NCBI GenBank assembly: GCA_965248055.1
Contig: CBDFIJ010000004.1
Span: 988,299-1,052,298 of the forward strand
Origin: Candidatus Multivoradales bacterium
Lineage (GTDB): Bacteria > Acidobacteriota > Thermoanaerobaculia > Multivoradales > JAHEKO01
Direction of reading: 5' to 3'
Length of the DNA stretch: 64,000 nucleotides
A program made the translations under genes and the position numbers. The notes beneath the pieces were generated by a model. It worked only from the letters and a program-made list of their open reading frames with translations. It was not told where the DNA came from and did not search any database. Each line of letters opens with the position of its first letter. Within the stretch, counting starts at the first letter, position 1. Below are positions 28,262-49,524 of this stretch, piece by piece.

Positions 28262-28851
28262 TTATTCGCTGTCAATCTCGGAAAGGTAGAGATCCCCTCG
28301 CGAAGTGGAGAGCGAGTAGACAATCCCTTCCTGGGTCAGCGCCATGGTCGCCGCGTCTTCTAGCTCGCTTTTTGCTTCGGTCTCCGCCAGTTTGGCCAAG
28401 CCACAGGTCCAACACTTTCGCCTGCCCTCTCTGGTTCACCATCACGTTGGCGGGTTTGAAGTCACAGTGGATGATTCCCTTAGCGTGAGCTTCGGCCAGG
28501 GCGTCGGCGATGGGAATGGCAAGATCAAACAGCTTGCTGAGCCCAAGACCATCTGCAGGAACGTGCTGGTCAAGAGTCTCACCTTCCACCAGCTCCATAG
28601 TCAGGAAGTGAATCCCGTCGGTTTCTTCGACCGAGTGGATGGTGACGATATTGGGGTGGTTGAGCGCTGCCACCGTCTTGGCCTCGCGTTTGAAGCCCTC
28701 CAAACGATTGGGATCGCTGGCCAGCCGCTGGGGTAAAACCTTTAAGGCTACTGAAAACGGCTGAGCCCTCCGTGCCCGATACACCTCTCCCATTCCCCCC
28801 TCGCCGAGCTTGGAAAGGGATACGGTAGTGAGACAGCCTCTCTCCGATCAC
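28262..28851 (-). pseudogene. Ser/Thr protein kinase remnant (frameshifted, truncated)
   Basis: GTG + MIGERLSHYRI, then +1 shift into the frame encoding LSKLGEGGMGEVYRA (Gly-loop), ALKVL (VAIK), and a degenerate catalytic loop HCDFKPANVMV. A second shift follows near LD(FG)LAKL, with termination ~190 aa before the activation segment/APE. Confidence 0.55.
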
Positions 28852-28960
28852 CAGTTTGTGTCCTTTCGAGATAGAGATCTTTCGCTCGGCTCAGGACTCA
28901 GCGCCGAGCGCCTCGGCTTGGCGGTGATCTGGTAGTGAGAGAGGGTGGTACCAATCACGC
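28795..28960. repeat. direct repeat copy 1 (~165 bp, ~85% identical to 29700-29878) covering the kinase 5' end and upstream hairpin
   Basis: Base-by-base comparison of the two stretches. Both contain GAGATCYTTCGCTCGGCTCAGGACTCAGCGCCGAGCG. Confidence 0.75.
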
Positions 28961-29401
28961 CAGCGGGTCCTCGACCGCTAGTCCCGGGATGGATTGGAAG
29001 TTGCGATCATGAGTCCAGATCACCGAGGCTCCGTTGTCAAACGCCGCCAAGGCGATCTGAAGGTCGAAGACCCGCACACCGCGGATGTCCCGGTCTGTAG
29101 CAACCTGCAGTAGCCGAGGGCCGAATTCCGGGCCAGGCCGCCAAAGACGGCCGCCGCCGTCTACCAATCCCTGCAAGAAAGCCTGTGCCTCGAGTGGCTC
29201 AGAGGGGCGACCGGTAGCGGTCGGATGGGTCACGATGCTCCAGAACTCGGCGATCGCAGGCGAGGCAACACCCCAACCACGACCACTGTCGGCAGCTCGT
29301 TGAATCGCTTCGCGCGCCGCGGCGTGCTCAGAAACCCCAGTGCGATGGGCGTAAACCAAAAGGTTGGTATCGATGGCGATCACGATACCGTTCGCAACCA
29401 T
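28955..29401 (-). CDS. vapC: PIN-domain ribonuclease toxin
   Basis: IAIDTNLLVYA (acidic PIN residues), 148 aa. Overlaps the upstream antitoxin gene by 22 bp. Confidence 0.8.
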   Translation of the reverse strand: MVANGIVIAIDTNLLVYAHRTGVSEHAAAREAIQRAADSGRGWGVASPAIAEFWSIVTHPTATGRPSEPLEAQAFLQGLVDGGGRLWRPGPEFGPRLLQVATDRDIRGVRVFDLQIALAAFDNGASVIWTHDRNFQSIPGLAVEDPLA

Positions 29402-29625
29402 TCACGCATCGCGGCGCGATCGGCGACGTCTATCCCCGCAGGTAGGCCTCCATTCACCGTCACGAACTCGAGTCGCTGAGTTCGATGCTCCGCGATCGGT
29501 CGATCGCTCTCCAGCTCGCGCCGCAGGCCACGGGTAAACAACTTGCGCAGAGTCGTCCTCTCTTCTGCGGCCTTTTTCTTGGCCGCGACCAGCAACTCTT
29601 CAGGTAGGTCAATGGTGGTTTTCAT
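29380..29625 (-). CDS. vapB: type II antitoxin (VapB-like, MKTTIDLPEELL family)
   Basis: 81 aa. MKTTIDLPEELLVAAKKKAAEE is characteristic of VapB/ribbon-helix-helix antitoxins. Confidence 0.65.
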   Translation of the reverse strand: MKTTIDLPEELLVAAKKKAAEERTTLRKLFTRGLRRELESDRPIAEHRTQRLEFVTVNGGLPAGIDVADRAAMREWLRTVS

Positions 29626-29674
29626 GAACCCATATTGCCATATTTATGGTTATACGGCACATCTCATCTTGGCC

Positions 29675-29764
29675 TCACTGCACTTTCGCGCGATAAACCT
29701 CTTTCATCCCACCTATGCCCAGCTTGGAAAGGATGCGGTAGTGAGACAGTCTCTCTCCGGTCAT
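29675..29764 (-). pseudogene. 30-codon kinase N-terminal remnant (MTGERLSHYRILSKLGIGGMKEVYRAKVQ*) inside direct repeat copy 2
   Basis: Hand translation. Intact Gly-loop in frame, preceded by AAAGGA, but terminates after 30 codons. Confidence 0.4.
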
Positions 29765-29878
29765 CAGTTCGCGTCCTTTTGAGATTGAGATCCTTCGCTC
29801 GGCTCAGGACTCAGCGCCGAGCGCCTTAGCTTGGCGCTTATCTGGTAGTGGGAAAGCGTGGTGCCGATCAGTTCCCCC
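29700..29878. repeat. direct repeat copy 2 flanking vapBC
   Basis: See copy 1. Same orientation. The vapBC pair lies exactly between the copies. Confidence 0.75.
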
Positions 29879-30346: not shown

Positions 30347-31543
30347 TTACCGGTTATCCAGGAGTTGGCGCGCTATCACCAATCGCTGAATCTCACTGGT
30401 CCCTTCGCCGATCGTGCAAATCTTGCAGTCGCGGTAAAACTTCTCAGCACGGTAATCCTTGATGTAGCCATAGCCACCGTGGATCTGCACTCCGCGCTCA
30501 GCACAAAACACCGCAGCTTCTCCGGCGTAGAGCTTGGCTTCCGCGGCCAAGCGAGTCACCCGCTCTCCACGATTCATTTTTTCCGCCGCTGCCATAACCA
30601 GCGCTTCGGAGGCGGCAATGCGGGTCGCCATCTCGGCGAGATGAAACTGCACCGCTTGAAACTTGGCGATCGCCTTGCCGAACTGTTCCCGTTCCTTGGA
30701 GTAAGCCAGCGCCAGATCGAACGCGCCCCGAGCAGTCCCCAAGCCCAAAGCGGCGATCGAAATTCGTCCGCCGTCGAGAATCTTGAGCGACTGAATGAAG
30801 CCGTCGCCGCGCTCCCCCAACAGATGGTCATCGGGAACCAAGCAGTCCTCCAAAATCACCTCAGACGTGTCCGAAGCGCGGCTTCCCAGTTTGTCTTCCT
30901 TCTTACCGGCACGAAATCCCTCCATCCCCTTCTCAACCACAAACGCAGAAATATTATGGTGCCGGGGTGCATCTGGATCGGTAACCGCCAGGACCACGCA
31001 GACGTCGCCTACTTTGCCGTGGGTAATAAAGGTCTTGGAGCCATTCAGCAGCCACCCACCATCGACCTTCTCGGCCTTGGTCCGCGTCCCTGCAGCGTCT
31101 GAGCCCGCTCCTGGTTCGGTCAAGGCCCAAGCGCCGATCTTGCGCCCGGTGGCCAAATCTGGCATCCAACGCTGGCGTTGTTCTTGGTTGCCAAACTTAT
31201 AGATGTGCTGGCTGCACAAAGAGTTATGGGCTGCGACCGAAAGCCCGATCGACGGGTCGATCCGGCTAATCTCATCCAAAATCAGGACGTACTCAATGTA
31301 GCCCAGGCCAGCGCCCTCGAACTCCTCTGGAACGACCACACCGAGAAAACCCAACTCGCCCATTTTGGCGAATAGTTCCCGCGGAAACTTCTGTGCTTCG
31401 TCGATTTCTTCAACGATCGGATCGATTTCTTGCAAGGCGAAGTCGCGTGCGGCCTCACGGATGGCGCGCTGCTCTTCAGTGAGTCCGAAATCAATCCCGG
31501 AATCGGTTTGCACTGGCGTCGTTGATGCTGTTGCTGTGGTCAC
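30347..31543 (-). CDS. acyl-CoA dehydrogenase (short/branched-chain type)
   Basis: ACAD N-terminal, middle and C-terminal domains. ALTEPGAGSD, GGYGYIKDY, catalytic E in IGEGTSEIQ. Confidence 0.85.
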   Translation of the reverse strand: MTTATASTTPVQTDSGIDFGLTEEQRAIREAARDFALQEIDPIVEEIDEAQKFPRELFAKMGELGFLGVVVPEEFEGAGLGYIEYVLILDEISRIDPSIGLSVAAHNSLCSQHIYKFGNQEQRQRWMPDLATGRKIGAWALTEPGAGSDAAGTRTKAEKVDGGWLLNGSKTFITHGKVGDVCVVLAVTDPDAPRHHNISAFVVEKGMEGFRAGKKEDKLGSRASDTSEVILEDCLVPDDHLLGERGDGFIQSLKILDGGRISIAALGLGTARGAFDLALAYSKEREQFGKAIAKFQAVQFHLAEMATRIAASEALVMAAAEKMNRGERVTRLAAEAKLYAGEAAVFCAERGVQIHGGYGYIKDYRAEKFYRDCKICTIGEGTSEIQRLVIARQLLDNR

Positions 31544-31748
31544 TCTGGCATGCCCCCCTCAGCGGTCAAGGATATCTCTTGTCGGTCGTCATCGGAACCA
31601 GACCTCAGGAATGCAACCGCGATGGGGTCACAGGCAGGTGGATTGAGATAGATACCGGCCCTCCTCCCTAACCCCCGCCGGGATGACATAGAAGAGGCTT
31701 CTCCGCCGGGATGCCCCGAGGGGAGTCCCGACGATGGTCATACCGGTC

Positions 31749-31890
31749 TGAGGCACTTCAACGTGTCGTTCCACACTGAGACACTTCATCGTGTTGTCCC
31801 ATCCTGAGACACTTAATCGTGTCGTCCCACACTGAGGCACTTCAGCGCGTCATCCCACGCCGTGGAACATCAACGCGTCGTCTCCTTCAG
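31749..31890. repeat. 28-bp imperfect tandem repeat x5 (TGAGRCACTTNANCGTGTYGTCCCAYNC)
   Basis: Aligned by eye. Flanked by partial F1-type elements (..CCTAACCCCCGCCGGGATGAC..) at 31663-31691 and 31995-32025. Confidence 0.7.
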
Positions 31891-32077
31891 TACTTCCTCG
31901 TCATCCTCGTAGGGTGGGGGTTTTGGGGATCGAGGATCTCCAACAGCGTCAGCGACCCACAGCCAGTATCTGGACGGCCACCGAATCCCGTCCCCCCTCC
32001 CTAACCCCCGCCGGGATGACGATGGGTGGAATCTCCTCTGCCTCTTGTTCAGAGGCGGTCCTGCTGTTGTCTGGTGA

Positions 32078-32110
32078 CGAAAAAAGTGTCCCCGCTGGAA
32101 CGAAGGGGAG
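32078..32110 (-). terminator. candidate intrinsic terminator downstream of the BMC operon (weak hairpin + T6 on the minus strand)
   Basis: Minus strand reads ..TCCCCTTCGTTCCAGCGGGGACACTTTTTTCG.. Confidence 0.3.
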
Positions 32111-32167
32111 GAAGCTGAAGTTCGGCTGTTGTCTTATCGAGAGAACAAGACCCTAACCGCGGCAACC

Positions 32168-32437
32168 CTAAGTCAGATCAACCGAGTCAACAATCCCCAC
32201 CACCATGGTGCGGATCGGTGCGGTGTCATCAAGCATAATCTGGCGAGAGGAGTTACCCTCGTCCAAGATCAGCACCACTTGATCGACGCCCGCGCCCACC
32301 GCGTCGATCGCCAAGGTGTAGTCGCCCTCGGGTTGCAAATTGGGGCTCAGCCACTGGCAGATCAACAAGCGCATACCATCGCGAACCGGATGATGGATGG
32401 TTGAGACCACGGTCCCGGTGACCCGAGCGATCTTCAT
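32168..32437 (-). CDS. BMC vertex protein (BMC-P; EutN/CcmL/PduN family), paralog 3
   Basis: MKIARVTGTVVSTIHHP.. is the canonical EutN/PduN N-terminus. 89 aa. ATGA overlap with the upstream gene. Confidence 0.8.
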   Translation of the reverse strand: MKIARVTGTVVSTIHHPVRDGMRLLICQWLSPNLQPEGDYTLAIDAVGAGVDQVVLILDEGNSSRQIMLDDTAPIRTMVVGIVDSVDLT

Positions 32438-32703
32438 GCCGTGCGATCCGGATGCTCGATCTGATCGACCAGGCCGACAATCGCGTGATCGACCGGCACG
32501 AACCAGGGGTCCATCGCCACCGCAGCTTCTCTGCTAGCAACGTAGTAAATCTCTTGACCGACGCCGGCTTGGCCGGTGGCGTCGGCGGCGACGATTGCCG
32601 ACCCGTTCGGTGACCCATCCTCGGCCAGCGGGCTGACAAGTAGCAACCGCATTCCGTCCATGCTTGAGACGCGCATCGTTGCCACTACGCTGCCGGTTAC
32701 CAT
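32434..32703 (-). CDS. BMC vertex protein (BMC-P), paralog 2
   Basis: Start set at the ATG giving MVTGSVVATMRVSSMDGMRLLLV.., 11 nt after the upstream stop. 89 aa. Confidence 0.7.
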   Translation of the reverse strand: MVTGSVVATMRVSSMDGMRLLLVSPLAEDGSPNGSAIVAADATGQAGVGQEIYYVASREAAVAMDPWFVPVDHAIVGLVDQIEHPDRTA

Positions 32704-32714
32704 CCCCAAATGCA

Positions 32715-33317
32715 CTAGTCGGGGCTCCCAACCGAGTCGGTATTGATCCGAGAGTGAAACAACGGTGCCTGCTCTAGGTTGCGCCAAACGTCCTCGCCGA
32801 GCTGGGCGATCAGTCGCTGCTCCAACACCACTTCTGGGTGAGCCAGGGACCCGACTCCGGCCTCCATCGCCGCTTGAACCTCATGCAGAACGCCAGAGAA
32901 CAGCAAGTAGCCCTTGCCTCCAAGGCCGTCGGCCATGCGTAGCGTCGCGATCGAGACCTCTGCCCCTTTGACGCCCGCATCGGCAACTTGCAGCAGGCCG
33001 GCGACGGTTTTTGTCTCGACGATCCCCAAAGCTTCACCCGAACGCTGATCGGTCTCCGTCAGAGCTTTCACCACCGCAGGATGAACGTCCGGCAATAATA
33101 CGCAGTCCAAGGGTTGAGCTAGGCCGATGGCGGCACTGCGGGCCTCGTCAACCGGTCCTACCTCGCCAGCCGCCAGGATCAAGAATCGCCCGGGTTGGAC
33201 TGTTCCCAGCCGCAAGTCTCCAAGTGGCGCTCGCTTGGCCATGGCGTCCGCGGCGGTGATGCCAACCGCGATCGATTGGTACTCCATCAGCAGGATGGCT
33301 GGATAATTTTGCGACAT
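32715..33317 (-). CDS. BMC-T shell protein, tandem BMC domains (PduT-like) lacking the Fe-S cysteine
   Basis: Two Pfam00936-like domains (AILLMEYQSIAVGITAADAMAKRA.. and ALGIVETKTVAGLLQVADAGVKGA..) aligning along PduT. The position of the PduT Cys is occupied by Q (GTVQPGRF). Confidence 0.8.
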   Translation of the reverse strand: MSQNYPAILLMEYQSIAVGITAADAMAKRAPLGDLRLGTVQPGRFLILAAGEVGPVDEARSAAIGLAQPLDCVLLPDVHPAVVKALTETDQRSGEALGIVETKTVAGLLQVADAGVKGAEVSIATLRMADGLGGKGYLLFSGVLHEVQAAMEAGVGSLAHPEVVLEQRLIAQLGEDVWRNLEQAPLFHSRINTDSVGSPD

Positions 33318-34810
33318 TAGACGATGCGCAGGCTGCCGACCACCGTCAGCCTACGGATGCGTGAGAAAGTGCGCGGTCGAGACAGGCCTTCCCCAGTTGG
33401 TGTGGCGATCGAGAACGAGGAGAAGCCCTCGCCCATTTGACCCAGGCCGGCGAAGTTGGAGCAGTTGGCGACGAAAATTGAGCAGTTCATGCGCCGCGCC
33501 ATCTCGGTAATCACGTCGACGTTGCGTGAATAGACCGAGGCGGTGTGGCGAAACCCGTGTTCCGCGGTCACCGAGAGCTGAATGCCTTCCTCCACGTCTC
33601 TCACCCTTACCACCGGCAGCACCGGCATCATCTGTTCGGTCCAGACCAAAGAGTGCTCGCGCGGGACTTCTGCCACCACCAGCCGAATCTCATCGCCAGC
33701 ACTAACGCCGATTTCAGCCAAAATCTTGGCCGCGTCTTGACCCACCCATTTGCGATTAATCCTGCCGGGCTTGCCGGCGGGGCCTAGCTCCTCAAAGATC
33801 GCCCGTTCCAGCTTGCGCAACTCGTGGTCGCGCAGCACTTGCGCTCCATTGGCGGCCATCGCCTTGACCAAATCGTCGGCCACCGCGTCGACCACAAAAA
33901 CTTCCTTCTCGTCGGTGCAGACCATGTTGTTGTCAAAAGATGCGCCTTGAACGATCGAGCGCCCAGCGTGGGAAATGTCCGCGCTGTCGTCGACCAGCAC
34001 CGGTGGATTTCCAGGGCCTGCGGTAATCGCTCGCTTGTCCGTCTTGAGTGCTTCCTTAACCACCCCTGGCCCTCCGGTGACCAGCAACAGGCGGATCTTG
34101 GGGTGCGACATCAGGTCTTGTGCTGACTCGATGGTCGGTTCGGCGATACAGGTCGCCAAAGTCTTGGGCCCTCCTGCCTCAGCGATCGCTTCATTGAGCA
34201 TGCCGACGTTCTCGGCGGAAACTCGTTGCGCACCCGGGTGGGCATTGAACACCACCGAGTTGCCGGCGGCCACCATGGCAATGGTGTTGTTGATCACCGT
34301 CGAGGTTGGGTTGGTGGTTGGAGTGATCGATCCAATGACGCCAAAAGGGGCGTACTCGGTGAGCATCTGCCCGTGGTCCCCGGTGACCACCTGCGGTTCC
34401 AAGTCTTCCGGGCCGGGGGTCTTGGTGGTGACTAAGCGATTCTTAAGGATCTTGTCGGCAATGCGGCCCAAGCCGGTTTCAGCGTGGGCTGCGCGTGCCA
34501 GATACTCACCTTGCTCCAGCATCCGCGCCCGCATCGCCTCGACCACCCGAAACCTACGATCCAGGCCCATCGCGGCAAAGCTTTTCTGTGCCTCGAAGGC
34601 AGCGTCTACCGCTTCATCAACGGTGGCGAAAGCGCCGAGAGGATAGGCATCGCGCGATGAACGCCCAGCCTGGTTCTTGGGTTGGCTCTGGGCTTGGCCC
34701 TGGCGGGTAGGAGAAACCGGAGGTGCCACGCGAGGCGCACCAGCGGCGAACCGCTCCCGCACCCGGCTGATCACCGCCTGTACGTCACCGTCAGCGCGCG
34801 CCGCAGCCAC
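33317..34810 (-). CDS. CoA-acylating aldehyde dehydrogenase (PduP/EutE family) with ~110-aa N-terminal extension
   Basis: Catalytic Cys in NNMVCTDEKE. GPGNPPVLVDDSADI. GTG start with GGGAG upstream. N-terminus has amphipathic DVQAVISRVRERF followed by a P/Q-rich linker (possible encapsulation peptide). Confidence 0.85.
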   Translation of the reverse strand: MAAARADGDVQAVISRVRERFAAGAPRVAPPVSPTRQGQAQSQPKNQAGRSSRDAYPLGAFATVDEAVDAAFEAQKSFAAMGLDRRFRVVEAMRARMLEQGEYLARAAHAETGLGRIADKILKNRLVTTKTPGPEDLEPQVVTGDHGQMLTEYAPFGVIGSITPTTNPTSTVINNTIAMVAAGNSVVFNAHPGAQRVSAENVGMLNEAIAEAGGPKTLATCIAEPTIESAQDLMSHPKIRLLLVTGGPGVVKEALKTDKRAITAGPGNPPVLVDDSADISHAGRSIVQGASFDNNMVCTDEKEVFVVDAVADDLVKAMAANGAQVLRDHELRKLERAIFEELGPAGKPGRINRKWVGQDAAKILAEIGVSAGDEIRLVVAEVPREHSLVWTEQMMPVLPVVRVRDVEEGIQLSVTAEHGFRHTASVYSRNVDVITEMARRMNCSIFVANCSNFAGLGQMGEGFSSFSIATPTGEGLSRPRTFSRIRRLTVVGSLRIV

Positions 34811-34898
34811 TAGCTAGCTCCCCGAGCCCAAGCCGCAGACCCACCAAGTCGTGACCTGAATCGCGACCCGGCACCGGGTCTTGGACAGCTTGGCCCCA

Positions 34899-35195
34899 TT
34901 AGCCGTCGCCCTTGCGGTAGACCTCACGCCCCTCGACGTCCCAACTGTCGACAATCGCCATAATCACCGCATCGCAGGGGCGATCTTGGGTGGCCACCGT
35001 CTGCCGCGCCGAGCTGCCAGTGGCATAGAGCACCACTTCGCCCTCGCCCGCACCCACCGCGTCCACCGCGACCACGTAGCCACCGGTAGTTTTGGCTCGG
35101 TCGTCGAGTTGTTCGACCACCATGAACTTGAATCCAGCCACTCCGGGGTCTTTCTGGCTTGCCACCAGATTACCGACCACCTTGCCAAGCAGCAT
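34899..35195 (-). CDS. BMC vertex protein (BMC-P), paralog 1
   Basis: MLLGKVVGNLVASQKDPGVAGFKFMVVEQ.. 98 aa. Confidence 0.8.
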   Translation of the reverse strand: MLLGKVVGNLVASQKDPGVAGFKFMVVEQLDDRAKTTGGYVVAVDAVGAGEGEVVLYATGSSARQTVATQDRPCDAVIMAIVDSWDVEGREVYRKGDG

Positions 35196-35198
35196 CGA

Positions 35199-35489
35199 CT
35201 AGCTCTTTTTGGGCGCGCGACCCAATGGCAACGCCGCGTCGACGTTGTTGTGCGGACGAGCGATCACATGAGTGGAGACCACTTCACCGACTTTTTCGGC
35301 TCCGCGTACCCCTGCCTCAACCGCTGCTTTCACCGCGGCAACGTCGCCCCGCACCACGGCAGTGACGTAGCCACCGCCGGTCTTTTCATAACCCACCAAG
35401 TCAACCTTGGCCGCCTTCACCATCGCGTCGGCGGCTTCGACCATGGCGGAAAAACCCCGCGTCTCGATCATTCCCAGTGCTTCAGCCAT
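35199..35489 (-). CDS. BMC-H hexameric shell protein (PduA/EutM-like)
   Basis: [29 protein letters not shown].. Start at ATG 35489 with AAGGAG 6 nt upstream. Confidence 0.85.
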
Positions 35490-35597
35490 ACTCTTCTCCT
35501 TCGCCCTCAGGCGATTGTCCATTTCTTGTTAATAGCTCTCTTTACAAACTGCATTGACTGCTTTGCTTCCACTTGGCCCTTCTAACTAGCCCTGCGT

Positions 35598-36224
35598 CTA
35601 GTCGACCTTGCGTCCGTCGATCCCATCCAGGGCCGCAACTGCTGCCCGCCAACCGACGTCAATATCTCTCTCTTCACCGCCCAGGTAGACCCGGCCGAAA
35701 GAACCGATCGAGCGAACCTCCAAGACGTTGATCCCGGATGCTTTCTCGGCCTCGTTGGCGGCCAGAGCAGCGTACGGAGCGGGTTCCACCTCCAGCACAT
35801 ATAGCGTCTGCCCTGGAATAATCATCTGCCCATGCCGCATGCGATTCACCAATTGCGCTTGGTGGTCGTCAATCGCCCGCACGATTTGGCTAGAAAGCAC
35901 TTTGGGTTTGATTCGGTCACTCTCCTTCAAGCCAATGTCAGCCAAGATCGCCTCGCCCGCAGCGCGAGTCTCGGCTTGGTCCTCCGAATGGACTTCAAGT
36001 AACCCGTAGTAACGCTCGACGACCTGCATCCCCGGGCGAACCCGGGTTGACTTCAGCGCCACATCGGTCAGCCGATTAATTTCGATTCCCGGTGAAATTT
36101 CTACATATAACGAACAATCCCCGGCCAAAGGTAAGAACCCTTGTGCCACGGTGCCCATAAAAGCAGCGTATTGCGGCTGCAAGCTGTCCAAAAATACGTA
36201 CGATCGAAGATCAATATCCGCCAC
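35598..36224 (-). CDS. BMC-T shell protein with circularly permuted BMC domains (PduB/EutL-like)
   Basis: TDVALKS..V.. and [29 protein letters not shown] match the permuted-domain hallmarks of PduB/EutL. Start placed at GTG 36224 (AAAGGA 8 nt upstream). The longest ORF reaches 36374 but would overlap deoC by 160 bp. Confidence 0.6.
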
Positions 36225-37104
36225 TTGCCCCATCCTTTCGAGAAACAATGTCCTTTCCGGAGACAATCGAAATTCCTGCTGACGCGCCGATGCGGGTCGC
36301 GCCAACATTGATGAACTCGCGGACCTGTTCCGCGGTACTAATTCCACCCGACGCCTTGACCTCAAGGTCACCACCCACCGCTTCGTGCATCAACGCCACG
36401 TCATACAACTCTGCACCACCGTTGCCGAAACCGGTCGAAGTCTTGACGAAGTTGGCTTTCGCCGATTTGGCCAACCGCGACGCGACGACCTTTTCCTCAT
36501 CGGTTAACAATCCGGTCTCCAAAATCACCTTGCAGGTGGCGCCAACTTCGCGACAGGCGTCGGCAACCTTAGCGATGTCCTGCTCGACCGCTTGGTAATC
36601 ACCACTTTTCAGAGCGCCAATGTTGATCACCATGTCGATCTCACGTGCACCATCGCGCAACGCCTTGCGGGTTTCCATCGCTTTGATCTCGGTGCTGTGG
36701 GCACCCGAGGGAAACCCAACCACCGACGCCACCCGCACCGGAGAATTGCGCGTGCGCGAAGCCGCTCGGGCAACCCAAAACGGGTTGACACAGACCGCGG
36801 CAAAGCCGTAATGCTTAGCCTCATCACACAGTTGGTCGATATCGGCGGCTGTTGCACTGGGCTTCAACAGGGTGTGGTCGATGTATTGCGCCAAATCAGA
36901 CGGTACCCGACCTCCCTCTCCGTTATAGGACACACGGCGCGCACCGGTGTGGACGATCGCTCGCACCTTGTCCGAACAACAGGCGGCACAACTGCCCTCG
37001 CAGTCACTGCATTCACCTTCACTGCATTCACCCCCACTGTCTGCGCCCAGCGCGGCTAGAACTTTTTCGGTGATCTGGTTGATCAATTGCTCTCGGTCAC
37101 TCAC
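36211..37104 (-). CDS. deoC: deoxyribose-phosphate aldolase with ~75-aa N-terminal extension (amphipathic helix + Cys-rich linker)
   Basis: DeoC core YIDHTLLKP ... KVILETGLL ... KTSTGF (Schiff-base Lys region). N-terminal [15 protein letters not shown] + [25 protein letters not shown] start 3 nt after the rpiB stop. Confidence 0.85.
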
Positions 37105-37107
37105 GGT

Positions 37108-37611
37108 TTACCTCGCGCCATAGGTGCGCTCAAGTTCGTCAATCTTAGCGACTCGCAGTGCGTGGCGCCCAGGACCGTGCGGTGTCGCCAGCCAAGTGTC
37201 GACAATCTGCAAAGCCAGGCCCCTGCCGATCAGCCCGGCACCAAGGGTCAAGACGTTGGCGTGGTTGTGTTCGCGGCTGTTGCGCGCCGAAGAAATGTCA
37301 TAACAGAGGGCCGCGCGCACACCGGGCACCTTGTTGGCGGCCATCGCTGATCCAATACCCGCACCGTCAACCACTATTCCAGCGGTTGCGGACCCGTTCG
37401 CCACTTTCTGCGCTACTGCGTGCGCCATATCTGGATAATCCACCGCTTCCGGCCCGTTGGTACCGCAATCGATCACCCGGTGTCCGGTGTCGGCTAGGTG
37501 CGCCGCAATGGTGTCTTTCAATTCGAATCCGCCATGGTCTGCCCCGACCGCGACCACCAAGTCACCCCCACCATTGACCTGCTGCGTTGTGGACACACCA
37601 GCAGCGGCCAC
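37108..37611 (-). CDS. rpiB: ribose-5-phosphate isomerase B (RpiB/LacAB family); true start possibly internal near 37554
   Basis: VGADHGGFELK, catalytic Cys in VIDCG, HN..ANVLTLGAGLIG. Confidence 0.85.
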   Translation of the reverse strand: MAAAGVSTTQQVNGGGDLVVAVGADHGGFELKDTIAAHLADTGHRVIDCGTNGPEAVDYPDMAHAVAQKVANGSATAGIVVDGAGIGSAMAANKVPGVRAALCYDISSARNSREHNHANVLTLGAGLIGRGLALQIVDTWLATPHGPGRHALRVAKIDELERTYGAR

Positions 37612-37732
37612 GGAGGCGATCGGCCCGGTCTCTGAGGCGACTTCCGAGGCGATGCTCTCGGCTACTGCCTGAGCTACTAACTCTCGAATTCGATCTGGAT
37701 CAGGTTTCAGCGTTGACTCCGTTCATTACAAG

Positions 37733-37797
37733 ACTTATTTACCACAGGACCTATTTGCCACAGGACCTATTTGCCACAGGACCTATTTACCACACCC
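37733..37797. promoter_or_regulatory. 16-bp tandem direct repeat x~4 (CTATTTRCCACAGGAC) in the region upstream of the BMC operon
   Basis: Seen directly at 37733-37797, ~125-190 bp upstream of the rpiB start on the minus strand. Each unit contains TGTGGYAAATAG on the coding strand. Confidence 0.5.
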
Positions 37798-37844
37798 TTA
37801 ACAATAATGTTTATCTAATATCCGCTGCGACTCCCGCAAAACCG

Positions 37845-39914
37845 TCATGAGAGGTCTGGAGCCGCGGTTCGAATCGCCCCCAATTGGTCAATCTGCTCCA
37901 GTTTCAACCCGCTGTAGTAGTGATCCAAAATCTCGGTAAAACCGGACCCGCGAAGCGCCATCCGGTAGGCACCCCGCTGACACATCCCCACCCCGTGCCC
38001 CCAACCGCGACCACTGAAAACCCAACCCGGCGCCTGTTGGCTGCCACTACTACGACGCACCCGAAACCAAGTCTCCGGGATATCCAAGAACCAGCGGATC
38101 GACAACCCTTTGAGCTCGCGGGTCTCTCCGCCGGTGCCATGCAACTTAAAGGTCTTCAAACGGCCGGAAACCCCCCGCTCGCCGAGCTCGAAAGAACGAT
38201 AACCAAAACCCGGAAATTCGGCGCTGGCTCGACGCGCCAAATCGCTGTCACTGCGGTGCTCACTCCATACCTTGGTCCCCGGTGCCCGGCTGGCATTACG
38301 ACTACTACGGGCTGGGATCAACGCCGCCACCGGATCACCCTCCACCAGCACCACGCGCACCGGATCCCCGGCCGCCAAGAGGCCATCGCCAGGGGCCTGC
38401 CAGTGCCACACCGTATCCCCAGGAAGGAGTAGATCTCCCTGCGCCGAACCCTGGGTTTGCACCTTGAAAGCAGCTTGGCTGCGAGCGACGAATTTGGTCG
38501 ACTGCTCGACCACCAGTGCCACCTCTTGAGCGACTTGATAGAGGATTCGGCGCAGATCGGCCAACAGTACGTGCTTACTCCCCTTGGGCAAACGCCGCAG
38601 AGAACCCGCCAATGGCTGATGATCATCAGCCACGGTTGCCGAAAACCAAGCCGGATCGGCGACCAGGTCGAGTACCGAGCCAAGAAAGCGGCGCACCTCG
38701 GAACCGATAAAACTCTCTAGGCGATCTTCACCCGGGGTTAGACCCGCCTTCTTCATCAATCGGCGAAAGGATTCGCCCACCTCCCGTGGGCTCGATCCCA
38801 GATCGCCGATCAGCCTACGCATGACTCGGCTCTCGATCACCGTCCAATCGCCCCGCCGACCGATTGAAACTAGGCCCCCTTCAATGCAGGGCACCCCACG
38901 AAGATAAGAATGGTGCTTGGCCGGAAAGACGGTTGCGACATCCTCGGTGTGACCACCGCAGGTCGCGGTATACAGAGTGTCTGCGGGGCGCCGGTCGGCG
39001 GTCACCAGTACCAGTCCGGCGGTTTCGCTCACCGCCTGATTCGACAACGGCTGTTCCGCCCCTAAACCTCCAAACACCTGGCAACGCGGCGTCGCACAAA
39101 CATCAAAGCCCTCAGCGGCAAACTCGCCCAAGTTGTGCAGTACATAGGATCGGGCGGCTACCGCCAACGCCTTGAGAGCATCCAGGTCGTTGTAGATTTT
39201 CGGCCCCATTTCCCGGGGCACCACGCCCCGCAGGTAATTCTCCAACTCGGTCACCAACACCACATTGATCGAGCCCCGGCGATTCAAGGTCAGTTGCAAA
39301 CCGCCACGATAAGTGCCCCCGGCCCAAGCCATAGGCCCACCGTCGGACCGCCGGACCACAACGGTGGTACCCGCCTTTTGCGCTCGGGAACCGGTAATTT
39401 GTAGACCCGCGTTGGCGATCTCACCGATCTCTTCGACCACCCAAGCGTCACGACCGCGGGCGCTCAGACGAGCCTGAGCGGCGACCGCGTCCTGACGTTG
39501 GTGCCAAATCCCCAACCGAACCCGCGTTAGTCCGGTCTCAGCATCGAAAGCGAGATCCGACGATAGACCGGTGAAACGCTCCAAGTCCTCAGCAAGTCGT
39601 TGCGCTTGCGCGGGCTCACGCAGCGCCGCAATTTGCAATCGGTAGCTCCAAGCCCGGACTACATCTCCTGTTGGCCGTACCACCAAATGCGATCCTTGAT
39701 CGACAACCTGACCTCCGGCGATCACTTCCATGGCGTGGCGACCGGCCAACACCACCTCCCGCACATCGGTCGCCAACCCCACCCGGAGTTGAAATTCTTG
39801 AGGCTCGCCTTCGAGCGCCGGCCAAAGCGGGCGCGAGACAACTAGGCCCAGGTAAGCCACAGCACAAACAACCGCGAAGCGAATCACGGGGCGGCGTTGG
39901 AAAAAGATTCTCAA
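37845..39914 (-). CDS. SpoIID/LytB-domain protein (cell-wall amidase enhancer family)
   Basis: Central SpoIID-like block (..NYLRGVVPREM.., ..AVAARSY.., GFDVCATPRCQVFGG). N-terminal TM helix. Confidence 0.7.
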   Translation of the reverse strand: MRIFFQRRPVIRFAVVCAVAYLGLVVSRPLWPALEGEPQEFQLRVGLATDVREVVLAGRHAMEVIAGGQVVDQGSHLVVRPTGDVVRAWSYRLQIAALREPAQAQRLAEDLERFTGLSSDLAFDAETGLTRVRLGIWHQRQDAVAAQARLSARGRDAWVVEEIGEIANAGLQITGSRAQKAGTTVVVRRSDGGPMAWAGGTYRGGLQLTLNRRGSINVVLVTELENYLRGVVPREMGPKIYNDLDALKALAVAARSYVLHNLGEFAAEGFDVCATPRCQVFGGLGAEQPLSNQAVSETAGLVLVTADRRPADTLYTATCGGHTEDVATVFPAKHHSYLRGVPCIEGGLVSIGRRGDWTVIESRVMRRLIGDLGSSPREVGESFRRLMKKAGLTPGEDRLESFIGSEVRRFLGSVLDLVADPAWFSATVADDHQPLAGSLRRLPKGSKHVLLADLRRILYQVAQEVALVVEQSTKFVARSQAAFKVQTQGSAQGDLLLPGDTVWHWQAPGDGLLAAGDPVRVVLVEGDPVAALIPARSSRNASRAPGTKVWSEHRSDSDLARRASAEFPGFGYRSFELGERGVSGRLKTFKLHGTGGETRELKGLSIRWFLDIPETWFRVRRSSGSQQAPGWVFSGRGWGHGVGMCQRGAYRMALRGSGFTEILDHYYSGLKLEQIDQLGAIRTAAPDLS

Positions 39915-40969
39915 GGCTTATTTTCGACTGCAGGACTGTTTGAGGTAACGGTTACTGTGCCTTGATTCACTGCGTCTCGATCTACTGTGTCTCTATTGAC
40001 TGTGTCTTGATTTCCTGCATCTTGATTCACTGGGTCTTGATTCACTGGGTCTTGATCTCGTGCCAGAGCGATTGCCGCGCCCCATACCAACAGCACCACC
40101 GCACCCATAGCGAGCGCCTGGATCACTCCCGAAACAATTTGACCCACTACTACCGCCACCAGATTGGAGCCGGCGAACATCTGCACCGACCAGCTCAAGA
40201 GCAGCACCGGCACCGACGCCGCAAGCATGACGAGAAAGGCAATGCCGATCATCATCAACCACGCACCGCCACGGCGGATAAAACTGCGCGACCCACGGCG
40301 AATCGCCTGGCCTAGCGGCAAGAACGGGAGGTGCATCTCGACCACCCACCACCACAGCCAGAGCAGTAACAGCAAGGTCGACACGATCAAGACGGCCAAG
40401 CAGCCCGCAACTAGCGCCGTCCCGCGCATGCCTCCCATCAGCATTCCCATCAAGAAAAACGGCACCATCGAAACCAGCACCAAAGTGACAGCGACCGGCA
40501 CCCGCCAAATCAACAGCCGCCACACAAGCTGTCCACCCCAGCCGAAGAACTCACCCCAGTTGAAGGTTTCAAACCAGTCTGCAGTCAAAGCTTGGGTCGC
40601 CGTCGCCTGCGAGGGCGCCTGACGATCGCCCGCGGCCAGTGTGCCCAAGACACCGCCGTCGAGGAAGGTCTGAATCAAGACTTGGATCAAGCCACCGAGC
40701 AACAACACCGCCACCGCCCAGGGGAGTTCGGCAGGCAAGTGCTGCAAAGACATCCACCGCGGCAACGCATCGACCAACCCCTCGGAATTCCCCGACATCA
40801 TGTCCAGATACAAGTCCCCCAGCCCCAGGAGTTTCAGCGCCGGGATCAGGGTCGCCGCAATCACCGCCATCGATAACAGACTCTTGAGTAACACCGTCCA
40901 GAGGAGCCGGTGATTGCCGCGCAAGTTCAGTGCGCCTCGCTCAAAGCAGGAAATCGTGCCGCGTCGCAT
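39911..40969 (-). CDS. integral membrane protein with D/N/Q-rich repetitive C-terminal tail
   Basis: Multiple TM helices. C-terminal DQDPVNQDPVNQDAGNQDTVNRDTVDRDAVNQ encoded by a 15-bp tandem repeat at 39955-40060. 4-bp overlaps with both neighbours. Confidence 0.5.
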   Translation of the reverse strand: MRRGTISCFERGALNLRGNHRLLWTVLLKSLLSMAVIAATLIPALKLLGLGDLYLDMMSGNSEGLVDALPRWMSLQHLPAELPWAVAVLLLGGLIQVLIQTFLDGGVLGTLAAGDRQAPSQATATQALTADWFETFNWGEFFGWGGQLVWRLLIWRVPVAVTLVLVSMVPFFLMGMLMGGMRGTALVAGCLAVLIVSTLLLLLWLWWWVVEMHLPFLPLGQAIRRGSRSFIRRGGAWLMMIGIAFLVMLAASVPVLLLSWSVQMFAGSNLVAVVVGQIVSGVIQALAMGAVVLLVWGAAIALARDQDPVNQDPVNQDAGNQDTVNRDTVDRDAVNQGTVTVTSNSPAVENKP

Positions 40970-42697: not shown

Positions 42698-42734
42698 TGA
42701 CCTCGCACATCCTGAATTGCCGGAACGCAAGGAG

Positions 42735-43880
42735 CTGGAGATTCAGCCAACATCGAGATCCTTCGACTCGGGCTACGCCCTCGCTCAGGATGACAACGGA
42801 AGAGGTAGCTCCCCACGCCGCTATCCAGCATGCAACGAAATGCCTTCATCGGAGCGAGCTGTCCACGATCCCAATGAACTAACCCGGCCTGCTCTTCGTC
42901 GGGGAGGGGCAAGTTCAAACGGCCCTACACGCCGGGGTTATCCTGAGTGGCCGAAGCGTGCAGCTCTACCCCGTAGTCACCCTGAACGGACTATCCAAGG
43001 CCCCAAATGAACTAACCCGGCTGTTCTTCGTCGGAGAGGGGATTGCCCCCTCCCGCACCCTTTCACTGTGGTGGTCCAGAGCGACCGAAGCGTACAGCTC
43101 TACCCCGTAGTCACCCTGAACGGGCTATCCAAAGTCCCAAAATGAACTAACCCGGCGCTGTTCTTCGTCGGAGAGGGGATTGCCCCACCCGCACCATTCC
43201 ACCGCAGTGGTCCAGAGCGACCGAAGCGTATTGCTCTACCCCGTCGTCATTCTGAGCGAACCAGTCATCCGCTCAGCACCCATTCCACCCGTGGTCATCC
43301 TGAGCGACCCCGAGTCCGCGAGGGAGAGTCGAAGGATCTCAACTTCACAGCGCACACTCTTTCTGCAGAGGGCAGCATTGTCGCGACCCGAACTGAGGAA
43401 GGCAAAAAACGGGAACCCCCAAGGGGATCCCCTACATCGTCTTCCAACGTCAGGTGAATCGCCGAAACGGAGAACCATTCGCCAGCATCGAGATTCTTCG
43501 ACTCGGGCTACGCCCCTCGCTCAGGATGACAACGGAAGAGGTAGCTCGCCACCCCGGTACCCAGCATGCAACGAGTTGCCTTCATCGAAGCGAGCTGTCC
43601 ACGATCCAAATGAACTAACCCGGGCTGTTTCTTCATAAGAGAGGGCTTGTCCCCTCTCACACCCCTCCACCGCGGTCGTCCCGATCGACCGAAGCGTACA
43701 GCTCTACTCCGTTGTCATCCTGAGCGACCCCGAGTCCGCGAGGGTGAAGTCGAAGGATCTCAACTGCACCGCGTACACTTCTTCTGGAGAAGGCAGCATT
43801 GTCGCGCCACTAACTCAAGAGGACAGAACGGGAACCTACGAGGGCGCCCCTACATTTCTTTTTCTTGGTGGCTTCGTAGG
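42735..43880. repeat. complex repeat region: two ~370-bp duplicated modules carrying F2 elements (GAGATCCTTCGACTC..CGCTCAGGATGAC in both orientations), plus three tandem ~128-bp subunits each carrying a GAGGGG-N5-CCCCTC hairpin
   Basis: 42750-42890 matches 43487-43625, and 43290-43440 matches 43712-43855, at ~90% identity. Subunits at 42875/43003/43131. Reading frames through it (DDNGRGSSPRRYPACNE..) are repeat-derived. Confidence 0.7.
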
Positions 43881-46655: not shown

Positions 46656-48569
46656 TTATTCCCGGTGTCGGGCCGCCGCCAAACACAGCTGCGTAGTCAG
46701 CAGATCGAGTGCGTTTAACTCGCACCCTTCATTATGGAGACGCTCTAACGTCGCTGCGATATGCATTGTTTTCTTTGACTTCCGATTGGAGACCCCAAGC
46801 TCAACGGCAACCTCACCCCACGCCCGATCCCAGCAAGAATCGCCGATGTCACCTTTGATAGCCGCCTCTATGTCCCTCGGCCACAGTACGCAGTTGTCAA
46901 GAAACTGAGTAGTACGAGGGTGCTGTTCGTTCTGCTGCTGTCCTAGGACGCCCAGAATGGAATTATTGAGATCATTACTCCTCGTATCGCCCAAGGAATG
47001 CCCTTCTCTATGATCCCCGTCCACCACGGCGTACACAGGAATCCCCAATTGCACCAATATTGCGGCAAAGTCTTGTATCTTGTCCTTTCCACCACATTCA
47101 ACAATGTGTCCACCGTAGCCTCGGAACTCATCCCAACGCCCAAACAGCCTTAGGCTGGTCGCGACATGTGCCACATCCTCCAACCCCTCAACCAATACCA
47201 CAAATGATGCAAAGAACATTTCCGCTTGGCTAGGTCGAAGACACTGTTCGACCGCCATCATTTGACTGCTAGGAAGCCTTGGCGCGCCGCCACCGGCCTC
47301 AGCCAAAACTTCACACAACTTTTTGTAGCTTAGTCCGGTAACCAAAGCCTCTTGTCTCTGATTATGCCTTCGAACCAATCGTACTGATTCAAATCCACGA
47401 CCAGACACAAATTGGGGACTATGACTTGTAACAACTATCTGCACGCCCACATCAGTCGCGAGTCGCTCAAGAACAGCGGCAAGATGTCGCGTTTGTGGTG
47501 GATGCTGAAAGAGTTCAGGCTCCTCGAAACCCAAGAGAAGAGTTCTCCCCTTATCGGACCTCGCATCCGCCAACTCTTCAAGCACTGCGGCGACATAAGC
47601 TCGCTGCAGCCCATGCCCCGTTCTTGAAAACGTCCCGACAAATTCATCGTCATCGCCGAGATGTACTTCGGCCTGAGGTCGAGCAACTTGAATCGACCGA
47701 GATGGTTCCGAAGCCCACTGCAGATTCAACGCAACTCTGGAATGGGACCAGGTGCGAAGTCTCTCTCTGAGGGCAGAACGCAGCGCATCAAGATCAACCT
47801 GCCTTCGGTCTATGATCCCCTGATAGTCAGACTCAGTGCGCTTTCGAAGGGCCTCGACCTCTTCATCAAGGGCAGTGTGCCCTTGGAGTGACAGACTTAG
47901 AAGTTCAGCCAGTGCACTATTCCGTGCATCTGTGGATTCATCAGAGGGGTCCTGCATGGCCGGAATCCTGATCCACTGGAGATGCCTTCCTAACTTGCTT
48001 CCTTGTTGCCAGCCGTAGAACTGGTCTCGGCTTTGTATCTCGACGCACTCACCGCGATGCTCTTCTTCATATGTTCGAAGAGCCAACTTCATGTTTGCCT
48101 TCACTCGTTCGTCGGGCAGGTCTGAAAATTCCTCCCGAAGTTTTGAATATATTCCTCTCAAATCGACCGCAGCCCCGCCACTTGAATCAACTTCGAAATA
48201 GGCAGCGAACCTTTCAATCCCGAGTCTTGATCCAAACTGAACAATTAGAGCTTGCTGTTTTTCAACATCCCACTCCGCGACAGCGCTTACCACCAATTCA
48301 CCACTCCGGACGTAATCCTCTAGTTCGGCCAGCGCATCAACCGAGAGACTCGAAAACGTCAGGGTAATCCGAATTGGCGATGATGTATTTCGGCGATGAA
48401 AATCCTCTTCTTCTAACGACCCCCCCTTGCGAAAAAAGACATCCATTGCCTCCAAGACCGTAGATTTTCCTGCACCATTTGGGCCTACAAAGCAGACGTA
48501 TTCATCGAAGTAGATGGTAATATCCTTAAAGCAGCGAAAATTTTCCACGCGGAGCTTAGTTAGCTGCAT
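46656..48569 (-). CDS. OLD-family ATP-dependent endonuclease (ABC-type ATPase + Toprim; GajA/AriAB-like)
   Basis: Walker A VGPNGAGKST near the N-terminus. FEEPELFQHP (Walker B). VVTSHSP. C-terminal Toprim with VLVEGLED and VVDGD. GC content ~48% vs >60% in the flanks. Confidence 0.75.
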   Translation of the reverse strand: MQLTKLRVENFRCFKDITIYFDEYVCFVGPNGAGKSTVLEAMDVFFRKGGSLEEEDFHRRNTSSPIRITLTFSSLSVDALAELEDYVRSGELVVSAVAEWDVEKQQALIVQFGSRLGIERFAAYFEVDSSGGAAVDLRGIYSKLREEFSDLPDERVKANMKLALRTYEEEHRGECVEIQSRDQFYGWQQGSKLGRHLQWIRIPAMQDPSDESTDARNSALAELLSLSLQGHTALDEEVEALRKRTESDYQGIIDRRQVDLDALRSALRERLRTWSHSRVALNLQWASEPSRSIQVARPQAEVHLGDDDEFVGTFSRTGHGLQRAYVAAVLEELADARSDKGRTLLLGFEEPELFQHPPQTRHLAAVLERLATDVGVQIVVTSHSPQFVSGRGFESVRLVRRHNQRQEALVTGLSYKKLCEVLAEAGGGAPRLPSSQMMAVEQCLRPSQAEMFFASFVVLVEGLEDVAHVATSLRLFGRWDEFRGYGGHIVECGGKDKIQDFAAILVQLGIPVYAVVDGDHREGHSLGDTRSNDLNNSILGVLGQQQNEQHPRTTQFLDNCVLWPRDIEAAIKGDIGDSCWDRAWGEVAVELGVSNRKSKKTMHIAATLERLHNEGCELNALDLLTTQLCLAAARHRE

Positions 48570-48627
48570 TGCTGGTCCTCAATTTGTAGCAGAGGCCGTT
48601 TCATTAAAGCACAAAAAAACCAACGCC

Positions 48628-48843
48628 ATGAACAGAACTCCAGTTGACTCATCCAATATAGCCTCTGTTGGGTACGATTCAAAACGTCGGATTCTTGAGG
48701 TCCAGTTCAATAACGGAACAGTCTACGAGTACTATGAAGTACCCTCGACAACTCACAGCAGCTTGATGTCTGCGGGCTCTACTGGTAGCTACTTCAACGC
48801 CAATATTAGGGATCGATTCCGCTTTACTAAGATTCAATCTTAA
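48628..48843 (+). CDS. KTSC-domain protein
   Basis: IASVGYDSKRRILEVQFNNGTVYEYYEVP.. matches the KTSC (lysyl-tRNA synthetase C-terminal-like) domain. Start moved to ATG 48628. Confidence 0.55.
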   Translation: MNRTPVDSSNIASVGYDSKRRILEVQFNNGTVYEYYEVPSTTHSSLMSAGSTGSYFNANIRDRFRFTKIQS

Positions 48844-48911
48844 GCGTACAGCGCAGCTGGCTGCATAAGAATTGGGCACAGATCTAAAGTATCCTCAGTA
48901 AAGAAGGGCAC

Positions 48912-49360: not shown

Positions 49361-49477
49361 ATATTGGGGGCTGCACCAGTTGGACGTTCGAGGTCATGGA
49401 CGGTGACCGAAAGCTCAAGGCGCTCATCGCCTGTAGTCTCACTGCCCTACCTCTCGATCGAGGCAGGAGGTCGCCTT

Positions 49478-49524
49478 GTTCGTGAAGATTGTAAGTTGAA
49501 TTGACAATTTTCACGAACAATCCT
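49478..49524. promoter_or_regulatory. 11-bp-arm inverted repeat (TTGTTCGTGAA-N24-TTCACGAACAA) upstream of the AAA ATPase gene
   Basis: Perfect arms seen in the sequence. Contains TTGACA. Confidence 0.35.

Follow-up and report, generated by a model that had tools for sequence, protein, structure and literature searches.

Described SPU microcompartments

Bacterial microcompartments (BMCs) of the sugar-phosphate (SPU) class are among the most widespread metabolosome types, with >280 loci in 26 phyla. Here, we describe a nine-gene SPU-type operon from a Candidatus Multivoradales bacterium (Acidobacteriota). It lies in a stretch of 64,000 nucleotides (assembly GCA_965248055.1, contig CBDFIJ010000004.1, positions 988,299 to 1,052,298), hereafter the window, in which all coordinates are counted. 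One subtype of the class, SPU3, is described in Supplementary Data 2 of a catalogue of BMC loci (Sutter et al. 2021, Nat Commun, PMC8217296). According to that entry, the only SPU3 enzymes are an aldehyde dehydrogenase (AldDH) and proteins of the families pfam01791 and pfam02502, with pfam02502 encoded first, and AldDH and the pfam01791 protein bear N-terminal encapsulation peptides (EPs). The SPU3 shell combines one standard BMC-H, a BMC-P triplet, a CcmP-like BMC-Tdp, and a BMC-Ts that lacks both PduS and a pore cysteine (PMC8217296). Satellite loci are described as uncommon, and Acidobacteria are listed among the hosts (PMC8217296). SPU loci are also reported in the literature to co-occur only rarely with other BMC types.

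The enzymes of another subtype, SPU6, have been purified from Chloroflexi bacterium GWB2_54_36 (Dwyer, Sutter and Kerfeld, Commun Biol 2024, PMC11585597). These are the deoxyribose-phosphate aldolase DERA and an RpiB-like protein, RPI. The N-terminal extension of the SPU6 DERA led to insolubility, and a truncated ΔN-DERA cleaved 2-deoxyribose-5-phosphate (dR5P) in vitro with a sub-millimolar Km. The SPU6 RPI had negligible ribose-5-phosphate isomerase activity and formed a stable ∼131 kDa complex with DERA. In all SPU RPIs, an Asp was reported in place of the catalytic Cys (E. coli Cys66), and RPI was proposed to be a packaging factor (PMC11585597). The same authors pointed out that SPU types without PTAC typically encode a BMC-Tdp, a possible exit for acetyl-CoA. 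More recently, SPU-type compartments were reported from Hodarchaeales (Asgard), with reconstituted shells that were shown to self-assemble (bioRxiv 2025, PMC12747264). The original prediction for the Multivoradales locus, made from the DNA alone, described the SPU class as experimentally uncharacterized, a statement that these two studies have made outdated.

A probable SPU3 locus

Nine open reading frames (ORFs) lie head to tail on the minus strand between 37710 and 32168, in the 5′ to 3′ order RPI, DERA, BMC-Tdp, BMC-H, BMC-P1, AldDH, BMC-Ts, BMC-P2, BMC-P3. Start codons were corrected by reading the DNA and by comparison with the closest relative (locus L001), whose DERA is 83% identical and whose flanking genes are the same. 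The genes and the two flanking elements are as follows; E-values are given with each match, and SD denotes a Shine–Dalgarno sequence.

37108..37710, minus strand: RPI (RpiB-like), 200 amino acids, CTG start; PF02502, 1.9e-52
36211..37104, minus strand: DERA (DeoC), 297 amino acids; PF01791, 8.7e-21, residues 72-279
35598..36224, minus strand: BMC-Tdp (CcmP-like, permuted, double-stacking pseudohexamer), 208 amino acids, GTG start; PDB CcmP 4ht5, 2e-86
35199..35489, minus strand: BMC-H, 96 amino acids, ATG at 35489, SD AAGGAG; PF00936, 2.9e-30
34899..35195, minus strand: BMC-P1, 98 amino acids; PF03319, 2.9e-29; best PDB match the Haliangium ochraceum (HO) shell pentamer 5v74, 8.5e-27
33317..34810, minus strand: AldDH (CoA-acylating), 497 amino acids; PF00171, 1.2e-38; PDB 5jfl, 2.7e-120
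32715..33317, minus strand: BMC-Ts (PduT-like tandem), 200 amino acids; PF00936 twice, 3.6e-24; PDB PduT 3pac, 6.5e-25
32434..32715, minus strand: BMC-P2, 93 amino acids, GTG at 32715; PF03319, 1e-17; PDB 5v74, 3.5e-12
32168..32437, minus strand: BMC-P3, 89 amino acids; PF03319, 8.9e-23; PDB EutN and CcmL, ∼3e-13
37728..37794, minus strand: 16-bp tandem repeat, 4.2 copies, GGYAAATARGTCYTGT on the coding strand; Tandem Repeats Finder score 106, 92% matches
32088..32105, minus strand: weak terminator-like hairpin with a T-run, ∼60 nt past the last stop codon; consensus scan

Pfam assigned eight of the nine ORFs at E-values from 1e-17 to 1.9e-52, and Pfam or PDB matches support every gene, which bears out the nine co-directional genes and the families first proposed for them, one shell subtype apart (see below). 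BMC-H (PF00936) and BMC-P (PF03319) genes are thus clustered with enzymes, as expected of a BMC locus. The expectation that the shell ORFs would match BMC or EutN hidden Markov models held for all except the third gene, which reached only 17.7 bits on PF00936, below the Pfam cut-off, and was rescued by its PDB matches. None of the nine ORFs is disrupted, and catalytic, gating and interface residues are conserved; the exception is the catalytic Cys of the RpiB-like protein, which is an Asp. No further BMC or EutN genes were found in the 64-kb window by tblastn with all nine proteins.

The genes are tightly packed. Gaps of 3 nt separate RPI from DERA and BMC-H from BMC-P1; AldDH and BMC-Ts overlap by 1 nt, as do BMC-Ts and BMC-P2, and BMC-P2 and BMC-P3 share 4 nt (ATGA). 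These five of the eight junctions are ≤4 nt, in line with the original claim for most of them. The remaining three are a 14-nt overlap of DERA with BMC-Tdp, a 108-nt gap between BMC-Tdp and BMC-H, and an 88-nt gap between BMC-P1 and AldDH. Upstream, the 16-bp repeat ends 18 nt before the RPI start codon; its four copies are the sole matches to this sequence in the window, where 0.5 would be expected by chance, and L001 carries a single similar GGTAAATAAGAC at the equivalent position. The repeat may be an operator or promoter element. A sigma-70 consensus scan found no promoter site in 31500-38000. Downstream, the terminator-like hairpin is only suggestive, because the consensus scan returned nine such sites in the region against 6.4 expected.

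The comparison with the published description, the conserved residues and the synteny together make it very probable that this is a complete, intact main locus of the SPU3 subtype, within the SPU-like class that was first suggested. Features of SPU loci in general are present: a DERA-type pfam01791 protein with an N-terminal extension, an adjacent pfam02502 protein with the Cys-to-Asp change, and an acylating AldDH. So are those of SPU3 in particular: the three-enzyme set with RPI upstream of DERA, one BMC-H, a CcmP-like BMC-Tdp, a BMC-Ts without a pore cysteine, and a BMC-P triplet in which two P genes are adjacent. PTAC, alcohol dehydrogenase and PduS genes are absent from the neighbouring and window ORFs that were screened. 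RPI and DERA are separate genes here but fused in 12-20 SPU3 loci; otherwise, we found nothing substantive that distinguishes the locus from the SPU3 description.

Other SPU systems differ more. The SPU6 locus shares a DERA that is extended by ∼70 residues at the N-terminus and carries the Asp/Lys/Lys residues, as well as an RPI with the Cys66-to-Asp change and an N-terminal EP. By contrast, the SPU6 AldDH has a C-terminal EP and belongs to another AldDH branch, its BMC-Tdp is from a different major clade, BMC-Ts is missing, and EutQ-like and GntR genes are added; the SPU6-like DERAs that we fetched are only ∼50% identical to the one described here. The Hodarchaeales compartments have the same DERA and AldDH core and the same proposed conversion of dR5P to glyceraldehyde-3-phosphate and acetyl-CoA. 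They have, in addition, PTAC, citrate synthase and MNdh (PduS), the last paired with a CPGK-pore BMC-Ts; their DERA is fused to a flavoprotein, one P protein bears a DNA-binding tail, and the Multivoradales locus has none of these features. The EUT and PDU compartments (ethanolamine and propanediol utilization) resemble the locus in that a signature enzyme makes a volatile toxic aldehyde, an acylating AldDH is encapsulated, and cargo is EP-targeted. They differ in that the signature enzyme here is a cofactor-free class I aldolase, neither PTAC nor alcohol dehydrogenase is encoded for internal CoA/NAD+ recycling, and a carboxysome-like gated BMC-Tdp takes the place of PduB/EutL.

Shell proteins

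The permuted BMC-T encoded by the third gene had been taken for a PduB/EutL-like protein. Its PDB matches point instead to the double-stacking CcmP/CsoS1D type: CcmP is followed by H. ochraceum T2/T3 (6.5e-76 and 3.9e-70, the latter HO-5816) and CsoS1D (2e-56). All nine matches at E≤1e-3 are BMC-Tdp proteins (CcmP, CsoS1D, HO T2/T3 and the RMM proteins MSM0271 and MSM0275), and neither PduB nor EutL is among them, which ruled out a PduB/EutL-type BMC-Tsp. The protein has a Glu-Arg pair, E70-R71, aligned with Glu69-Arg70 of CcmP, which we take to be the pore gate residues. The L001 orthologue shares both this start and the deoC overlap, and its precomputed Pfam family is CsoS1D_N.

The other shell proteins agree with the first assignment of one BMC-H, one tandem PduT-like BMC-T and three EutN-like BMC-P, given the Pfam and PDB matches listed above. 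BMC-H is identical to HO-5815, the hexamer of the solved HO shell, at 78 of 93 residues (84%). It carries the interface motifs KAAK and ARPH, the second of which differs by one residue from the PRPH motif that the catalogue quotes for SPU1 BMC-H (PMC8217296). In BMC-Ts, Gln41 occupies the position of the Fe-S pore cysteine of PduT (‘tiCpGkf’ in 3pac aligned to ‘tvQpGrf’). The BMC-P proteins are ∼33% identical to one another; BMC-P1 follows BMC-H, and BMC-P2 and BMC-P3 adjoin at the end of the operon. The start of BMC-P2 was chosen by alignment with its 91-residue L001 orthologue. Further counterparts in the HO shell (PDB 5v74 and related structures) are HO-5816/5v76 for BMC-Tdp, HO T1 (5dih) for BMC-Ts, and the HO pentamer for BMC-P. 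Because BMC-H, BMC-Tdp, BMC-Ts and BMC-P are all homologous to HO proteins, the shell architecture can be modelled directly on the solved HO shell.

The RpiB-like protein and its start codon

The upstream limit of the operon was originally placed at a GTG at 37611, which proved too short. The RpiB-like reading frame extends a further 33 codons upstream, to a CTG at 37710 (codon 37708-37710) that is preceded by an SD sequence, GGAG, at 6-nt spacing. This adds the peptide (M)KPDPDRIRELVAQAVAESIASEV, which aligns with the N-terminus of the 191-residue L001 orthologue, LSPDPSKIRDLVAQAVDDAL, where translation starts at a TTG. The full-length protein begins with an EP-like helix, PDRIRELVAQAVAESI, followed by a linker and then the LacAB_rpiB domain. 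An alignment of ∼25 RPI orthologues showed conservation of the helix and its variable linker, as well as of the motif VDGAGIG. On the strength of the SD sequence, the aligned L001 start and the conserved helix, GTG 37611 was dropped in favour of CTG 37710 as the apparent start. ORF callers limited to ATG, GTG and TTG miss the CTG start and therefore return an RPI that is 33 residues short and has lost its putative encapsulation helix. The same annotation problem was described for SPU enzymes by Dwyer et al. (PMC11585597).

The original prediction had RpiB feeding or interconverting the pentose phosphate. This is unlikely, because Asp115 replaces the residue that is the catalytic Cys in C. thermocellum and E. 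coli RpiB (‘ivicGtG’ of the C. thermocellum structure 3ph3, matched at 7e-46, aligned to ‘ivvdGaG’), and because the SPU6 homologue has negligible activity on ribose-5-phosphate and binds DERA. By analogy with SPU6, the RpiB-like protein is probably a packaging partner rather than a feeder enzyme.

Aldolase, dehydrogenase and their N-terminal extensions

The DeoC of the first annotation is confirmed by its Pfam match and by a canonical Asp/Lys/Lys triad in the TIM barrel. Residues D157, K221 and K250 are invariant in an alignment of 121 homologues, and the intervals between them, 64 and 29 residues, match those in the active SPU6 DERA. The Pfam domain leaves outside it an N-terminal extension of ∼70 residues. 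An AlphaFold2 (AF2) model and the alignments divide this extension into an amphipathic helix (residues 3-21), a Cys-rich segment and a second helix (44-52) before the barrel. The first helix was modelled with a predicted local distance difference test score (pLDDT) of ∼80-85, and the Cys-rich stretch 23-43 poorly, at ∼50. The 120 best homologues have this extension and align over 88-100% of the query. In a hydrophobic-moment test of the DERA helix, 2% of shuffles reached the observed value, supporting an amphipathic helix.

A CoA-acylating AldDH, as first proposed, is likewise borne out. The closest solved structure, 5jfl, is a BMC PduP-type acylating AldDH to which the FDNN..C motif aligns, and the catalytic Cys298 is conserved. 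The N-terminus of AldDH has an EP-like helix, DVQAVISRVRERF, that is conserved in orthologues and followed by a Pro/Gln-rich linker. AldDH and DERA thus both begin with conserved helix-plus-linker extensions, and with RPI all three cargo proteins appear to carry N-terminal extensions of the encapsulation-peptide type. A Pfam scan at E-values up to 10 found no family in the N-terminal extensions of RPI, DERA or AldDH.

A cysteine motif in the DERA extension

Between the encapsulation helix and the barrel, DERA contains the motif C-x(2,4)-C-x3-C-x3-C, formed by C32, C35, C39 and C43 (window 36976-37011). The first three do not vary among the 121 aligned sequences, at least 90% of which also have C43; the spaced four-Cys motif occurs in 119 of the 120 closest DERA homologues. 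At least four cysteines are found in the DERA linker of 56 of the 81 fetched loci, including SPU6-like loci, where the spacing is C-x3-C-x4-C-x3-C, and shell-less RPI-DERA pairs. The motif has been secondarily lost in most Acidimicrobiia SPU3 loci, which otherwise retain the full cassette, and this loss in one lineage suggests that it is accessory.

The motif is the sole under-described feature of the locus. The main text of the 2024 SPU characterization (PMC11585597) says nothing of it, and the catalogue text does not mention it in connection with SPU, although it does mention unrelated four-Cys extensions on the MIC3 AldDH and a MIC6 oxidoreductase (PMC8217296). A literature search on Cys motifs in BMC cargo extensions found no description of it. 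The AF2 model is uninformative on a metal site because of the low pLDDT (∼50) of the Cys-rich segment. As a speculation to which we give little weight, the cysteines might form a metal, Fe-S or redox-switch site that controls cargo condensation or aids electron or cofactor handling in SPU3 compartments, which have no PduS, PTAC or alcohol dehydrogenase.

Distribution and synteny

Relatives were collected by a degenerate-pattern scan with one genome per species, which gave 80 loci (81 with L001), and were searched by tblastn for homologues of the nine proteins. In 22 of these loci the complete set is present in an unchanged order; they come from Thermoanaerobaculia (Acidobacteriota), Acidimicrobiia/Actinomycetota, Chloroflexota and Planctomycetota. 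Loci on truncated contigs have partial orders that are consistent with it. Since the same order recurs in 22 independently assembled loci of four phyla, the nine-gene arrangement cannot be put down to chance.

The flanks encode SpoIID/SPOR, an IstB-like ATPase, an acyl-CoA dehydrogenase, a glyoxalase-fold protein, DAHP synthase and CarA. These genes are shared only with L001 and L002, the nearest relatives, which marks the nine genes as the conserved unit. The host itself is Thermoanaerobaculia-like: among CarB homologues at 71-74% identity, all those with a taxon name are labelled Thermoanaerobaculia, Acidobacteriota or Acidobacteria. The acyl-CoA dehydrogenase, the glyoxalase-fold protein, SpoIID and the IstB-like ATPase were considered as parts of the system and dropped, being syntenic only in those two relatives.

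RPI-DERA pairs also occur with no shell-gene homologue within 10 kb on either side. Such pairs were found in many Acidobacteriota, namely Terriglobia, Vicinamibacterales, Bryobacterales and Pyrinomonadaceae (loci L027, L034, L035, L037, L039, L041, L044, L052, L054, L063-L065, L067, L072, L073, L075 and L077). DERA in these pairs possesses the N-terminal helix and, in most cases, the Cys-rich segment. This suggests either split loci or a shell-independent role.

Proposed pathway and competing explanations

Gene content, residues and synteny of the locus are directly established; the pathway that it serves is proposed by analogy. Under this scheme, the BMC-H pore or the gated BMC-Tdp would admit dR5P from nucleoside or DNA breakdown into the shell. 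DERA would cleave it into acetaldehyde and glyceraldehyde-3-phosphate, the latter leaving for glycolysis. AldDH would trap the acetaldehyde inside the shell as acetyl-CoA, with reduction of NAD+ to NADH. The RpiB-like protein, most likely non-catalytic, would bind DERA and help to condense and package the cargo, a role that we offer as conjecture. Because PTAC, alcohol dehydrogenase and PduS/MNdh are not encoded in the locus and its BMC-Ts lacks an Fe-S pore, acetyl-CoA, CoA and NAD(H) would have to cross the shell; the large gated BMC-Tdp pore is a plausible route, conjectural here as in the literature. The core of the original prediction, a self-contained SPU-type metabolosome locus in which DeoC would make acetaldehyde and an acylating AldDH would consume it, is retained in this scheme. 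Judging by the activity of the ∼50% identical SPU6 orthologue, dR5P is most likely the substrate.

Several points weigh against this scheme. The evidence on SPU enzyme activity is in vitro and comes only from the SPU6 orthologue. No deo or nucleoside-catabolic genes were found among the ORFs screened in the window, and the shell-gene search covers the 64-kb window. The locus encodes neither PTAC nor alcohol dehydrogenase for recycling CoA and NAD+. An Asp in place of the catalytic Cys is no proof of inactivity on every substrate. Support for the encapsulation helices is also uneven: in the hydrophobic-moment test, 25% of shuffles reached the value observed for the RPI N-terminal helix, which is not significant. 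For AldDH, the test picked the wrong segment, the best window (19-32) falling largely within the Pro-rich linker, downstream of the proposed helix; only for DERA was the amphipathicity significant.

The same architecture might house a different chemistry, which we regard as unlikely but as the best of the alternatives. The substrate could be another, possibly rare, sugar phosphate, or the aldolase could run in the condensing direction in an organelle that detoxifies or assimilates aldehydes. DERA is reversible and promiscuous. RPI is conserved beside it, and some SPU3 loci even fuse the two, although the dR5P pathway has no role for RPI; the absence of nucleoside-catabolic genes from the screened ORFs and the shell-less pairs with similar extensions in many Acidobacteriota point the same way. 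On the other hand, the SPU6 DERA does cleave dR5P with a sub-millimolar Km, the catalytic residues of the Multivoradales DERA are all canonical, and its AldDH falls in the PduP/EutE-type group that oxidizes acetaldehyde or propionaldehyde. For the condensing direction, the locus contains no enzyme that would consume the product.

Less probable still is an HO-type locus that DERA and RPI simply happen to neighbour. BMC-H, BMC-P1 and BMC-Tdp do have their nearest solved structures in HO, and the order from Hoch_5816 to Hoch_5812 is presumably Tdp-H-P-AldDH-Ts, like the centre of the locus. The main locus of HO, a BMC of unknown function, carries AldDH and shell proteins but neither DERA nor RPI. 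HO also possesses two paralogues of BMC-Tdp along with satellite P genes; the operon described here has a single Tdp and includes every P gene. The catalogue's distinction between HO and SPU rests on the absence of pfam01791 and pfam02502 from the HO main locus (PMC8217296). Membership in the HO type fails on this point because DERA and RPI are in the operon: they stand first and second in it, adjoin or overlap shell genes, have putative EP-type extensions, and keep their synteny in 22 loci. The published SPU3 description, by comparison, fits in both its enzymes and its shell set.

Hardly credible is a decaying or accessory, satellite-like copy dependent on another BMC locus elsewhere in the genome: the shell-gene search was confined to the 64-kb window, but none of the nine ORFs is degraded, catalytic, gating and interface residues are conserved, a full H/T/P inventory and cargo are present, SPU3 satellites are uncommon, SPU rarely co-occurs with other BMC types, and L001 keeps an identical locus and flanks.

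Other features of the window

The window contains several further repeats and a few genes of separate interest. In the intergenic region downstream of the operon (31652-32020), four copies of a 28-bp tandem repeat (31737-31882) are flanked by two 36-nt elements that are 92% identical (31652-31687 and 31985-32020), resembling clusters of repetitive extragenic palindromes or miniature inverted-repeat transposable elements. On the other side of the operon, a 15-bp tandem repeat of ∼8 copies (39952-40067) lies inside the 3′ end of an ORF for a 352-residue membrane protein and encodes a repeated pentapeptide tail of the (D/N)-(P/T/A)-V-N-Q-D type. Dense direct repeats fill ∼1.1 kb at 42700-43830, in families of 72-143 nt that are 63-95% identical and have two to four copies each. 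This apparently non-coding DNA separates a DUF6503 gene from a MerR/HspR-like gene upstream of dnaK.

An islet of low GC content at 46656-50726 (0.53 versus ∼0.59) is probably a small defence island. It encodes an OLD-family ATPase-TOPRIM nuclease (PADLOC Old, 6e-51, with matches to the AriA and GajA models too) and a DUF4143 AAA ATPase matching the candidate defence family PDC-S01 (1.7e-109). A small ORF in the islet (48514-48843), recognized by eye, is presumably KTSC-domain-like. At 28272-29870, a truncated Ser/Thr kinase fragment (173 residues) and a PIN-domain toxin gene lie between two copies of a ∼185-nt repeat (28774-28957 and 29688-29870), 78-87% identical. This suggests that the kinase gene was disrupted by a toxin-antitoxin insertion or duplication.

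Perspectives

The locus adds a further clean and compact nine-gene example to SPU3 and leaves existing knowledge of the subtype unchanged. A lesson for annotation is that the putative encapsulation helix of RPI is found only if a CTG start is allowed. Because its shell proteins are very close to those of the solved HO shell, the locus is a reasonable construct for heterologous reconstitution of a class that has been proposed to recycle DNA-derived deoxyribose in soils and sediments.

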